Below are positions 35,037 to 39,932 of a DNA stretch of 64,000 nt, one piece after another. Position 1 is the stretch's first letter. The number at the start of each line of letters is the position of its first letter. The translations under genes were made by a program, and so were the position numbers. The notes below the pieces were generated by a model, which was not told the origin of the DNA, did no database searches, and saw only the letters and a program-made list of their open reading frames with translations. Source of the DNA: Enterobacteria phage RB18; the sequence record NC_054906.1; one strand, written 5' to 3'.

Positions 35037-37301
35037 TCATAATTTACAGGATGAACAATCTTCAGCTTTTGGAGTTTCTATTTCATAATCATCAGTACCA
35101 GAACCATCGCGGGTATTGTGATAATAGAAATTTTTTCCGCCAAAATACCAAAAATACAAAAGGTCATCAATCATTATTGACATTGGAACCTTGCCTTTAG
35201 GGAAGATTTGGGGGTCATAGTATGTATTCGCCGAAGCTGATTGACAAACCCATTTCAGCATAATAGCTACCTGCGTAAGATAAGGTTTATTACCTTTCTT
35301 AGCTAATTTCCATGTATAGTCGTAAAGGTCTATGTTATGCTCAATATTGGGCACGACTTGATTAAAGGAGCCCTCTTTTGATTCTTTAACAGAGACTGGT
35401 CCACGTGGAGGCTCGATACCGTTTGTACTGTTAGAAACTTGGGAAGATGACTCACATGGCATAAGTGCTGATAATGTGCTATTACGGATGCCAAAGAGCT
35501 TAAGGTCTTCCCGCAACGACGACCAGTCACAAACGTATTTTGGAGCTGCGATTTGGTCAATCTTTTTATTGTACCAGTCGATAGGTAATTCGCCTCGAGA
35601 CCAACGAGTGTCTGAATAATATTCACAAGGTCCTTTTTCTTTGGCGAGCTTAATGGATGCTTTAATGAGTCCATACTGTAATCTCTCAAATAGTTCATGT
35701 GTTAAATCGTTAGCATCTTCATAAGAAGCAAAGTTACTTGCCAGCCAAGCTGCATAGTTAGTAACACCTACACCGAGGTTACGACGCTTTTTAGCTTTTT
35801 CTGCTTCAGGAACTGGATATCCTTGGTAATCCAAAAGATTATCAAGAGCACGAACTTGGACTTCTGCCAATTCATTAATTTTATCTTGGTCTTGCCAGTC
35901 AAAATTATCTAGTACGAATGCAGAGAGAGTACACAATCCAATTTCAGCATCAGGGCTATTCACATCATTTGTTGGAATAGCAATTTCACAGCACAAGTTA
36001 CTCTGACGAATAGGTGCCTTTTCACGAATAAACGGAGTGTAGTTATTCGTATTATCAATGAACTGTACATAAATCCTTGCTGTTCCTGAGCGTTCAGTCA
36101 TGAGCAATTCAAATAGTTCACGGGCTTTAATACGCTTTTTACGAATATTAGGGTCTTTTTCTGCTGCTTCGTATAATTCACGGAAACGGTCTTGGTCTTT
36201 AAAATAAGAATAATAAAGCTCGCCACCCATTTCATGCGGACTGAACAAAGTAATGTAATCGTTCTTTCCGAATCGTTCCATCATCAAATCATTCAGCTGA
36301 ACACCATAATCCATATGACGAATGCGGTTTTCTTCTACGCCTTTGTTATTTTTCAAAACGAGAAGATTTTCAACTTCCAAATGCCAAATAGGATAATAAG
36401 CAGTAGCAGCGCCGCCACGAATTCCACCCTGTGAACATGATTTAACTGCAGTCTGAAAATGTTTCCAAAAAGGAATAACACCGGTATGGCGTACTTCACC
36501 CATACCAATCTTAGAACCTTCAGCACGAATCATACCAACGTTAATACCAATTCCAGCGCGTTTAGAGATATATTCAACAATTGAAGCGGAAGCCTTGTTG
36601 ATAGACTTTAATGAATCACCTGCCTCAATAACAACACATGAACTAAACTGTCTAGTCGGAGTACGACAACCAGCCATAATAGGAGTTGGCAATGAAATCT
36701 GTCGAGTGGATACTGCTTCATAAAAATGGATAACATGTTTTAATCTATCAACAGGTTCATCTTGATGCAGTGCCATTCCAATAGTCATAAATGCAAACTG
36801 TGGAGTTTCATAAATTTGACCAGTGGTTTTATCTTTAACTAAATATTTTTCTTTTAATTGCATCGCCCCGGAATAAGTAAATTCCATATCCCGTTCGTGC
36901 TTAATTTTTGATTCTAAAAATGTAATTTCTTCTGCTGAATATTTTGACAATAATTCAGGGTCATATTTACCTGCATTTACACAATAAGAAATATGGTCAA
37001 TAAATGAACGTGGTTCATACTGCCCATAAACATGCTTACGAAGAGCGAACATTAAACAACGTGCAGCTACATATTGGTAATCAGGCTCTTCAACCGAAAT
37101 AGAATTCGCAGCGGCCTTAATGACAATAGTCTGAATATCATCAGTTGTCATTCCATCACGGAGATAAGATTTAATATTTTCATATAATTCATAAGGATCT
37201 ACTGATGTTCCTTCAGCTGCCCAAGATAAAACTTTAATAATTTTTTGTGGGTCAAAGCTCTGAGAAACACCACTACTTTTGATAACATTAATTAATTGCA
37301 T
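35037..37301 (-). CDS. nrdA: Ribonucleotide reductase alpha subunit
   Basis: 754 aa; class I RNR large-subunit signatures. Confidence 0.9.
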   Translation of the reverse strand: MQLINVIKSSGVSQSFDPQKIIKVLSWAAEGTSVDPYELYENIKSYLRDGMTTDDIQTIVIKAAANSISVEEPDYQYVAARCLMFALRKHVYGQYEPRSFIDHISYCVNAGKYDPELLSKYSAEEITFLESKIKHERDMEFTYSGAMQLKEKYLVKDKTTGQIYETPQFAFMTIGMALHQDEPVDRLKHVIHFYEAVSTRQISLPTPIMAGCRTPTRQFSSCVVIEAGDSLKSINKASASIVEYISKRAGIGINVGMIRAEGSKIGMGEVRHTGVIPFWKHFQTAVKSCSQGGIRGGAATAYYPIWHLEVENLLVLKNNKGVEENRIRHMDYGVQLNDLMMERFGKNDYITLFSPHEMGGELYYSYFKDQDRFRELYEAAEKDPNIRKKRIKARELFELLMTERSGTARIYVQFIDNTNNYTPFIREKAPIRQSNLCCEIAIPTNDVNSPDAEIGLCTLSAFVLDNFDWQDQDKINELAEVQVRALDNLLDYQGYPVPEAEKAKKRRNLGVGVTNYAAWLASNFASYEDANDLTHELFERLQYGLIKASIKLAKEKGPCEYYSDTRWSRGELPIDWYNKKIDQIAAPKYVCDWSSLREDLKLFGIRNSTLSALMPCESSSQVSNSTNGIEPPRGPVSVKESKEGSFNQVVPNIEHNIDLYDYTWKLAKKGNKPYLTQVAIMLKWVCQSASANTYYDPQIFPKGKVPMSIMIDDLLYFWYFGGKNFYYHNTRDGSGTDDYEIETPKAEDCSSCKL

Positions 37302-37618
37302 AAGTCCTCAACTTGAAAATCGTCTTTAAACAATCGGTTAACTATATGAGCTATTATATCACCATGACACGGCTTTGGTTTACATGTGCATCCTAGCCTC
37401 ATTCCACGTAAAGGCTCTAAATGTGCTTTAGTTATTTCTCCGGATTTAATTCGACGTATAAAATCTTTTTTGAATAATTCAATGGCAGCCTCCCGGCTGC
37501 CAGCATCTTTACCGACGTAATTTCCCCAAAATGTACCACGGTGAATATTAACATCAAAGTCGGATTTGTATTTATTCACTACCCGGCATAGACGGCCCAC
37601 GCTGGAATAATTCGTCAT
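37292..37618 (-). CDS. Small protein with C-terminal CxC-x4-CHGD motif
   Basis: 108 aa; [16 protein letters not shown] cysteine/histidine cluster. Confidence 0.45.
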
Positions 37619-37835
37619 ATTGTTTTTCCGTTAATACAGTAATATCATAGTAACAATCGGAAGAAGTTTTAACTGTGGAAATTTTATTGTCAAAATACTC
37701 ACGAGTCATTTTATGAGTATAGTATTTTTTACCATAAATGGTAATAGGCTGTTCTGGTCCTGGAACTTCTAACTCGCTTGGGTTAGGAAGTGTAAAAAGA
37801 ACAACGCCAGAAGTATCTTTAAATCGTAAAATCAT
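37572..37835 (-). CDS. Hypothetical protein (87 aa)
   Basis: ORF overlapping td start by 4 nt. Confidence 0.4.
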
Positions 37836-38692
37836 ATTGCCATTTTCCCTTTAATTGCTGGATGCGATTCATAATTTTCAAGGATAAAATCTTTCGGTTT
37901 CATGTATTCAGTTAACCAGTAAAGCTGTGTTTCGGTGTCACAATTTCCAAACTCTATAGGCCAATCAATTTTAAGTTCACACAGTTCTTTAGGCTCACGA
38001 CGTAAAATTTCTTTACATTGCGCAGTATGATTCATATAGATGTGAGTATTACCACCAGAAAATATCAAATCTCCTGGGATAAGATTACACATCTTAGCCA
38101 CAATATGCGTCAAGGCAGCGTACGAGGCAATGTTGAATGGCAATCCCAAGAAAACATCTACACTTCTTTGGTACCATTGTAAATCAAGATAACCATTACG
38201 CACATTAAACTGATAGAACATATGACAGGGCGGTAATGCCATTTGATTGATTTCAGCTGGATTCCATGCTGAAACGATTTGACGTCGATCAGTTGGTAAT
38301 TTTTTAATACGATCAATAGTTTCAACTAATTGATCCACACCGCCGAAATCACGCCATTGTTTACCGTATATAGGACCAAGTTCACCACTATGATATCCTA
38401 GGTCTTTAGCCTGGTTTTCATAGTTATCGTCCCAAATAGTTTTACCTTGAATAAGACTGCCATGAGTGCGAAGACGTAAATCATTAACATTGGTAGAACC
38501 GGAAATAAACCATAGAAGCTCAGCAATGCATGCATTCCAGGCGAGCTTTTTAGTTGTTACCGCAGGAAAACCTTTAGTTAAATCCCAGCGTAATTTAGTA
38601 CCGAACAAAGCAATTGTTCCTGTGCCTGTTCGGTCATCGGTTTCATAGCCATTTTCAAAAATGTCTTTAATTAAATCTTGGTATTGTTTCAT
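37832..38692 (-). CDS. td: Thymidylate synthase, uninterrupted
   Basis: 286 aa continuous ORF; PPCH active-site motif; no intron. Confidence 0.9.
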
Positions 38693-38737
38693 TTAGTACC
38701 TTATATAAATTATAATACATTTTATGAAGCTAAATAA

Positions 38738-39097
38738 TCAATACGGTTTAGCATCAAATTTTCTCTCAATTTCAGGCGTGAAATATAATTCTTTACCGCG
38801 TTTGGAAAAGCGACCAATAATATGATAATTATTTTCATCAAATGTGATATTACCAATATCCATAGCTTTCAACCAAATATCGATATTTCTATCCAGCTTT
38901 ATGTCAAAATTCCAATACGGAGAACTATTACCGAAAATACTGCAAGCGGATTCAGTGAAACAACTGCTATAAATCTTGTCTTTAGGAACTACTAATTGAT
39001 AGACGCCTTTAATAAACTGAGGACCTTGCCATTTTGGCTGTTTCACGTCTTTTTCTAATAGAATAGGGTAATAATTAAAATTCATATTTTCCGCCAC
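38738..39097 (-). CDS. Hypothetical protein (119 aa) inserted between frd and td
   Basis: ORF with SD filling a roughly 410-bp frd-td spacer. Confidence 0.5.
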   Translation of the reverse strand: MAENMNFNYYPILLEKDVKQPKWQGPQFIKGVYQLVVPKDKIYSSCFTESACSIFGNSSPYWNFDIKLDRNIDIWLKAMDIGNITFDENNYHIIGRFSKRGKELYFTPEIERKFDAKPY

Positions 39098-39105
39098 GCG
39101 TTATT

Positions 39106-39932
<827 letters not shown>

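Follow-up and report, generated by a model that had tools for sequence, protein, structure and literature searches.

Comparison of alleles and homologs has shown that the interval between frd (dihydrofolate reductase) and td (thymidylate synthase) of Enterobacteria phage RB18 holds a genuine, strongly conserved phage gene, here called A, which is intact and under strong purifying selection. The gene is already catalogued, having been deposited hundreds of times, and is not a new insertion in this genome; in fact, it is phage T4 which is the exception at the frd-td junction, and the "putative homing endonuclease" labels given to A in some records are without support. In general, the frd-td slot represents a compact case of modular evolution in T4-like phages, in which up to three small genes, kept in a fixed order, appear to have been lost or swapped at the precise borders of genes; a relic left in the junction would record one such event. 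Small ORFs of unknown function that vary between T-even phages are common, and their presence would be no surprise to a T4 specialist; A is tightly constrained, its neighbours on both sides encode well-studied enzymes, and its structure, which has no solved relative, is predicted with confidence.

Layout of the frd-td locus

The window, that is, the whole stretch of 64,000 nucleotides from sequence record NC_054906.1 which was analysed, carries the following features at this locus, all of them on the minus strand:

39106..39687 (minus): frd, dihydrofolate reductase, 193 aa, from the ORF listing
39139..39173 (minus): region equivalent to the T4 promoter Ptd, with AAATGGTTGA at 39164-39173, N12, a candidate -10 element TAAAAT at 39146-39151 and the start equivalent at 39139
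39101..39112 (minus): left 12-nt direct repeat TAAATGAAATAA, comprising the last codon of frd, its stop (TGA, 39106-39108) and a td-like start that is dead (ATG AAA TAA)
39086..39100 (minus): leader of A, CGCGTGGCGGAAAAT, with a GTG at 39095-39097 and a Shine-Dalgarno-like GGCGGA at 39090-39095
38738..39085 (minus): A, 115 aa from its ATG, PHROG 1928, predicted compact beta-rich domain
38693..38737 (minus): A-td spacer of 45 nt, with the MotA-box-like TTTAGCTTCA at 38725-38734 and TATAAT at 38709-38714
38684..38695 (minus): right 12-nt direct repeat TAAATGAAACAA, comprising the functional td start ATG (38690-38692)
37832..38692 (minus): td, thymidylate synthase, 286 aa, from the ORF listing

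The original prediction had placed a 119-aa ORF between an frd end at 39106 and a td start at 38692, and both the ORF listing and the sequence bear this out, the start of the ORF being amended to the ATG at 39085. The gap (38693..39105, 413 bp) contains a single long ORF, on the same strand as both genes, and the ORFs in its other frames do not exceed 57 aa. In its GTG form the ORF spans 38738..39097, has 119 aa and begins MAENMNFNYY. The likely start, as read from the sequence, is the ATG at 39085 (115 aa, MNFNYY...) and not the GTG at 39097, since the homologs and most database annotations start at MNFNYY. Moreover, GGCGGA lies 4 nt 5' of the ATG of A, while the GTG has no Shine-Dalgarno-like sequence, and the related contigs L022 and L023 lack one nucleotide of the leader, so that GTG and ATG no longer share a frame there.

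Since td is uninterrupted over its 286 aa, it is intronless in the window, and the Frd protein is 98% identical to that of T4. The T4 genes overlap by 4 bp (ATGA), the end of frd being at 145109 and the start of td at 145112 in NC_000866, in agreement with the original prediction. The junctions of RB69 and WG01 show the same overlap of frd stop and td start (ATGA), an arrangement which the window lacks. An Rfam scan of the gap for structured RNA or tRNA gave sub-threshold noise only, and the RNA fold of the spacer was no better than that of shuffled sequences (z -1.2). On the other side of td, the td-nrdA interval of the window holds the small ORFs nrdA.1 (37292-37618, minus; DUF4326, E 5.5e-22) and nrdA.2 (37572-37835, minus; DUF5496, E 2.2e-63), which overlap by 47 nt, the same as in T4.

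Family, distribution and constraint

A is an ordinary member of PHROG 1928, a family with no described function, structure or Pfam model. It matches the profile over the full length (E 1.6e-35; residues 8-115 on positions 2-125 of 126). The relatives in CC31 and in the metagenomic contig L013 match this profile too, and in other genera the family takes in the A type as well as the B type (a paralog, see below). A 1-kb junction probe matched 630 phage records, 355 of them with near-full coverage and identity of up to 98.3%, while tblastn with A itself found about 361 phage records at 90% identity or more and another 192 below 60%. The carriers at 90% identity or more include T2, RB14, RB32, RB27, RB10, RB33, wV7, AR1, PP01 and phiD1. 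The proteins of T2, RB14/RB32 (RB32ORF229c), Shfl2 (Shfl2p237) and phiD1 (g240) occupy the same frd-td place with 95-99% amino acid identity, the T2 copy differing from that of the window at one residue of 115, and homologs down to 30% identity occupy the same position in other genera. The records label A "hypothetical protein" nearly throughout, those of the BASEL collection "putative homing endonuclease". A literature search on the ORF names and on the frd/td junction found nothing relevant.

The constraint on the protein can be read from both close and distant comparisons. Among the alleles of the T-even group, the dN/dS ratio of A is 0.01-0.05 (Nei-Gojobori), and the comparison with phage PTK gives 31 synonymous differences and 10 non-synonymous ones (dS 0.79, dN 0.036). 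A profile search of 1.84 billion representative proteins returned just 37 clusters (at 50% identity), in which length and motifs are conserved, and all but four of these are stand-alone proteins of 95-139 aa. In an alignment of 40 sequences, W19, G91, K95 and G97 are invariant and Q16, G27, Y29, F93 and F102 nearly so, the family motifs being Q-x-K-W, HG[IV]Y, GN and IGRFxKxGxxxxF. The earlier remark that no motif could be recognised in the 119-aa protein agrees with the sequence searches of Pfam, NCBIfam and PDB, where the A protein found no match; likewise, neither the 40-member profile nor individual members reached any PDB chain or Pfam family. Within the 64-kb window no second copy of A was found, and in T4 no family member turned up elsewhere either, the best E being 0.7 when all six frames of the complete genome were scanned with the family HMM.

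One unusual relative has been observed, a 195-aa ORF (P0013; contig L020, OR941409.1) in which an unrelated N-terminal part precedes the last 40 residues of a Jiaodavirus-type member. In this contig td, nrdA and other genes are duplicated and fragmented, which probably reflects an error of assembly or else extensive rearrangement of the genome.

The frd-td slot in other phages

Gene order was computed by tblastn with Frd, Td and a 68-aa ORF (C, see below), together with the family HMM on six-frame ORFs. In all 25 loci that have a family member and whose order was computed in this way, as in four further genomes by annotation, the member is flanked by frd and td and shares their strand. The slot family spans about ten Tevenvirinae genera, so that the notion of a newly inserted accessory gene had to be abandoned: the family is an old resident at this same position. 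Five junction states have been found in all; the order of A, B and C is constant, the states being ordered subsets of A-B-C:

frd-td: T4, WG01, RB69
frd-A-td: the window, T2, FriedrichMiescher, KP1, PTK, NHEP36, N2 and several IMG/VR contigs
frd-A-B-td: contigs L003, L009-L011, L027
frd-A-B-C-td: F48, metagenomic L013, L025, L026, L028
frd-C-td: fPS-90, EPIMRB01, fPS-2

Two tandem genes occupy the slot in Kanagawavirus (Kosakonia phage 305), Marfavirus (F48), Karamvirus (CC31, PS49), Gelderlandvirus (S16, ABTNLPp2), Moonvirus (Merlin) and Winklervirus (CBH8), and a single one in Jiaodavirus (KP1) and Tegunavirus (phiR1-RT). In these genera the slot genes overlap frd, one another and td by 1-23 nt.

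The gene called B, of about 115 aa, is a paralog of A, the family HMM giving 1e-30 to 1e-37 for A and 1e-16 to 1e-22 for B. Since the two are always adjacent and overlapping, a heteromer of A and B is possible. After the Q-K-x-W motif, B has an extra conserved segment (…G.{2}PTI[ED]Q[YF]KR.P…) which A lacks. B was located at:

L009, 1983-2333
L010, 1992-2342
L011, 1965-2312
L003, 2817-3176
L013, 4332-4673

C is the 68-aa ORF (MSNKLKVKDVPNAM..., PHROG 9550); it is unrelated to A and B, and about 135 Tequatrovirus records carry a copy that is at least 90% identical. Its loci are:

L006 (Yersinia phage fPS-90), 1798-2004
L007
L008 (fPS-2)
L005, 3148-3351
L013, 4670-4879

C occurs both as an alternative occupant of the slot and as the third gene of A-B-C arrays. 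A homolog that is 43% identical is present in Phapecoctavirus phages, and some records misannotate C as "flagellar biosynthesis protein".

The A-carrying junction is the majority state in Tequatrovirus, with about 361 records against about 30 of the T4 type, which makes T4 the unusual one; the latter figure, out of roughly 510 Tequatrovirus-like records in all and with T4 itself making up many of the 30 or so, is an estimate from row spread and subtraction, the 50-bp junction probe having let half-matches past the threshold. Compared across T-even genomes, the ORF is thus present in most of Tequatrovirus and absent from T4, and so is not universal.

Junction anatomy and history of the slot

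The 3' end of frd is identical in T4 and in the window as far as TATAAATGAAA. In the window this shared end is followed by TAACGCGTGGCGGAAAAT-ATG, the ATG being that of A, and the stop of A by the 45-nt spacer, which ends ...GGTACTAAATGAAACAATACC at td. The two border sequences, TAAATGAAATAA and TAAATGAAACAA, form a direct repeat, identical at 11 of 12 positions and 417 bp apart, and excision of one copy together with the interval gives the exact T4 junction. Thus, the flanking genes of T4 are nearly identical to those of the window, which differs in having 417 extra bp between the repeat copies. The ATG AAA TAA of the left repeat corresponds to the beginning of td, in which a change from C to T has turned a codon into a stop. 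Seven of its 12 positions are constrained by frd, and a match is found at 7 of the 8 positions left free by one gene or the other, which, by our own estimate, would happen by chance about once in 100 to once in 1000 cases in AT-rich DNA; exact 9-mer repeat pairs 300-500 bp apart number 223 across the 64-kb window. Both junctions are common to all the Tequatrovirus A alleles examined, which indicates a single origin, and the empty junction is found in the nearest genera, in RB69 (Mosigvirus) and WG01 (Dhakavirus).

The description of the ORF as extra and inserted can therefore be kept in part, as it is absent from T4 by the whole-genome six-frame HMM scan and the junction fits an insertion, but it is not specific to this genome, being shared by some 361 records. 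The repeat with its dead td start favours an old insertion into a T4-type junction, a polarity which we infer from the border sequences. Moreover, with the family resident in the slot of about ten genera, the empty junction has probably arisen, at depth, by loss, and the copy of the T-even phages by re-acquisition. It appears probable, on the whole, that the T-even lineage had an empty junction, into which A was regained by recombination and then spread by homologous exchange. The old slot-resident Tevenvirinae family would have been lost in the T-even stem, leaving the lineage that led to the T-even phages with an empty, overlapping frd/td junction, still seen in T4, RB69 and WG01. The A cassette would then have been restored by recombination with a distant Tevenvirinae phage carrying a resident A, an entry which would have left the dead copy of the td start behind the frd stop. 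The cassette would later have spread to most Tequatrovirus and some Mosigvirus phages by homologous recombination, and C would have returned separately, by recombination with a distant relative.

The same borders can be read with the polarity reversed, A having been continuously present and the overlap of T4, RB69 and WG01 being a deletion between the border repeats, and this reading we regard as possible, though not as probable. A and its paralog B do hold the slot in about ten genera, the junction states are ordered subsets of A-B-C, and the A type is the majority in Tequatrovirus; furthermore, removal of the 417 bp between the repeats yields the T4 junction to the base, and the ATGA overlap of frd and A in NHEP36 looks native. 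Nevertheless, the left repeat has no function of its own, and the match of 7 of the 8 frd-free positions to the td start is better fitted by a duplication at insertion than by chance. In addition, an identical empty junction is common to three genera, and the A alleles of Tequatrovirus and Mosigvirus-like phages (92-93% at the amino acid level) are far closer to each other than the Frd proteins are (57-59%, NHEP36).

Two Mosigvirus-like phages show how the junction may vary. PTK has the same leader with two extra A residues ahead of the frd stop, and its Frd is longer by 12 codons, an extension which underlines that the frd end is easily remodelled. In NHEP36, an RB69-type frd overlaps A directly by ATGA. 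In PTK (contig L016, about 685-723), the Frd readthrough (…SVYKNEIATGGKYEF) crosses the leader of A into the start of A. The leader of A in the window loosely resembles the sequence upstream of the A start, the frd 3' tail, in the metagenomic contigs L013 and L014, a likeness that a ribosome-binding site common to both might fully explain, and to which no weight is given.

Mosaic ancestry of frd, A and td

The three genes do not share one degree of divergence. Between NHEP36 and the window, Frd is 57-59% identical, A 93% and Td 95%, a contrast which indicates a recombination breakpoint at the frd/A border; in general, the A alleles of Tequatrovirus and of Mosigvirus-like phages are 92-93% identical at the amino acid level. 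Within Tequatrovirus, frd is nearly uniform (dS 0.11-0.13 for the window against T4, T2 and fPS-90), but for td there are diverged classes of allele (dS about 0.9-1.2 for the window against T4, exon 1, or fPS-90), and recombination breakpoints at gene borders are therefore indicated here as well. The ungapped comparison of td with T2 gave a dS of 1.16 and a dN of 0.137, the latter being implausible and suggestive of misalignment. In the distant genera, identities to the window are 45-49% for Frd, 30-46% for A and 71-80% for Td, while the metagenomic contigs L013 and L014, with a full A-B-C array, reach 63-66% for A and 81% for C, with Frd at just 48%. The td of the window matches the allele of phage FriedrichMiescher.

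Expression context

The T4 middle promoter Ptd starts at 145142 (PMC2988021, Table 1), that is, 30 nt upstream of the td ATG and within frd. By alignment, AAATGGTTGA-N12-TAAAAT, with its start equivalent at window position 39139, is identical in the window and in T4; the assignment of the MotA-box-like and -10 sequences within it is our own reading, and they are to be taken as candidate elements. The first gene downstream of the Ptd equivalent is A in the window, 51 nt from the start equivalent, and td in T4.

About 30 nt of the A-td spacer are not present in the spacers of PTK and NHEP36. This extra segment of the window spacer carries TTTAGCTTCA-N10-TATAAT (38709-38734, minus), with one mismatch to the MotA-box consensus (a/t)(a/t)(a/t)TGCTTtA and a perfect -10, at a spacing of 10, which is just outside the usual 12 +/- 1; for a looser motif, GCTTYA-N10-13-TANNNT, the window has 20 occurrences, where 9.5 would be expected. 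This element is a candidate replacement middle promoter for td, the Ptd equivalent now lying upstream of A. A generic scan for sigma-70 promoters and terminators gave nothing notable.

Since A is always found between frd and td, and in other genera is overlapped with its neighbours at start and stop, it belongs to the transcription unit of the thymidylate-cycle enzymes. The frd.1-3, nrdA.1 and nrdA.2 genes of T4 are likewise short, uncharacterised, co-oriented and interleaved with frd, td and nrdA; they are unrelated to A, their families being DUF5417, FRD2, Phage_FRD3, DUF4326 and DUF5496.

Predicted structure and function

The AlphaFold model of A had a pLDDT of 81 with 13 sequences, and of 93.3 (pTM 0.85) with the 40-sequence alignment. 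Strands are predicted at residues 6-12, 27-34, 38-40, 48-50, 62-64, 80-82, 86-96 and 99-104, and a helix at 68-76. In the model of pLDDT 93, the order of the DSSP elements is compatible with a five-stranded OB barrel with a helix between strands 3 and 4, extra short strands being present; structural similarity of the model to solved OB domains (HIN, S1, Teb1/RPA-like) was not significant, and a Foldseek search of viral models (BFVD) returned uncharacterised proteins of T4-like phages only. In the model, the beta1-beta2 loop and the beta4-beta5 hairpin carry the conserved residues; in an OB-like fold, these two elements would make up the ligand-binding face. No catalytic-looking set of conserved residues is seen, the invariant ones being aromatic, lysine and glycine, and most family members have a pI of 8-9.5.

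The product would be a mildly basic, single-domain protein of 13 kDa, whose binding partner would most likely be another protein, a nucleic acid or a nucleotide-like ligand. Tentatively, A may be a small non-enzymatic binding protein which acts alongside the co-expressed enzymes of the thymidylate cycle and dNTP synthesis. The gene is dispensable, since T4 and RB69 do without it.

With somewhat more reservation, A might instead have no part in nucleotide metabolism and serve in host takeover or against host defences, as an effector whose gene happens to occupy a permissive slot of an early or middle operon. As would suit such a role, A is small, phage-restricted, dispensable, patchy and without known domains; the slot is hyperplastic and also hosts the unrelated C, and nearby small ORFs such as nrdA.1 (DUF4326) are of unknown function too. 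However, a strict frd-td position with start/stop overlaps across about ten genera is unusual for effectors. Rather improbable, in turn, is a more specific role within thymidylate synthesis, with A and B as small subunits of a structurally new class that couple dihydrofolate reductase (DHFR) and thymidylate synthase (TS) physically or functionally, a counterpart in trans of the linker of bifunctional DHFR-TS, or as binders of folate or nucleotide ligands that regulate thymidylate synthesis. The conserved position, the translational coupling, the strong constraint and the confident model with no solved structural neighbour make this reading compatible with the data and, if true, it would account for the fixed place of the genes between frd and td throughout about ten genera.

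Homing endonuclease labels and the neighbourhood of td

The annotation of A as a "putative homing endonuclease" in the BASEL records (MZ501066, MZ501089, MZ501050, MZ501067) would make it a free-standing homing endonuclease or self-mobile selfish gene, a reading that we consider very unlikely. Some features of the locus could suggest it: the presence of A is patchy among close relatives, direct repeats flank the cassette, and td, the target of I-TevI in T4, is close by. Gene 32, the target of SegG in T4, also lies nearby. The seg and mob genes of T-even phages likewise vary in presence among close relatives, and the region of A is rich in such genes. Nevertheless, no GIY-YIG, HNH, LAGLIDADG or other nuclease domain was found at E<=10 in A and 40 family members, A itself has no recognisable catalytic motif (GIY-YIG, HNH, LAGLIDADG, PD-(D/E)XK), and there is no nuclease fold among the structural neighbours. 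At 115 aa, A is also shorter than the T4 seg and mob products (140-264 aa, truncated or defective ones aside), and its locus is constant, unlike theirs; it is under strong purifying selection with vertical coherence across genera, and is accompanied by no transposase and no meaningful terminal inverted repeats. With no motif, no fold and a fixed locus, the label has been rejected.

That A has arisen by chance as an ORF, or is a pseudogene decaying in the spacer, to which the missing T4 annotation and the lack of a known domain would point and nothing further, can practically be dismissed, being refuted by the conservation pattern (dN/dS 0.01-0.05; length and motifs conserved in 37 clusters) along with the confident AF2 model.

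A transposon-like insertion was considered and rejected as well: the flanking 12-nt repeat (11/12) is present, but the only ORF has no transposase domain. The inverted repeats of the region are short and AT-rich, and do not lie meaningfully at the cassette termini.

The original prediction had also proposed a hotspot of accessory-gene insertion beside the mobile intron of td. The slot has turned out to be variable, with its five states, but no tie to the td intron was found, and such a link was discarded as a rule, A occurring both with an intronless td (the window, T2) and with an intron-containing one (N2, L021). C also co-occurs with the td intron (fPS-90, fPS-2). Annotated homing endonuclease genes lie in or next to td in several relatives, so that the td neighbourhood is a frequent target of mobile endonucleases, separately from A. 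Their positions are 2862-3327 in L033 (phiR1-RT), 2517-3254 in L035 (ABTNLPp2) and 4184-4921 in L008 (fPS-2), the gene of phiR1-RT being antisense and directly after td.
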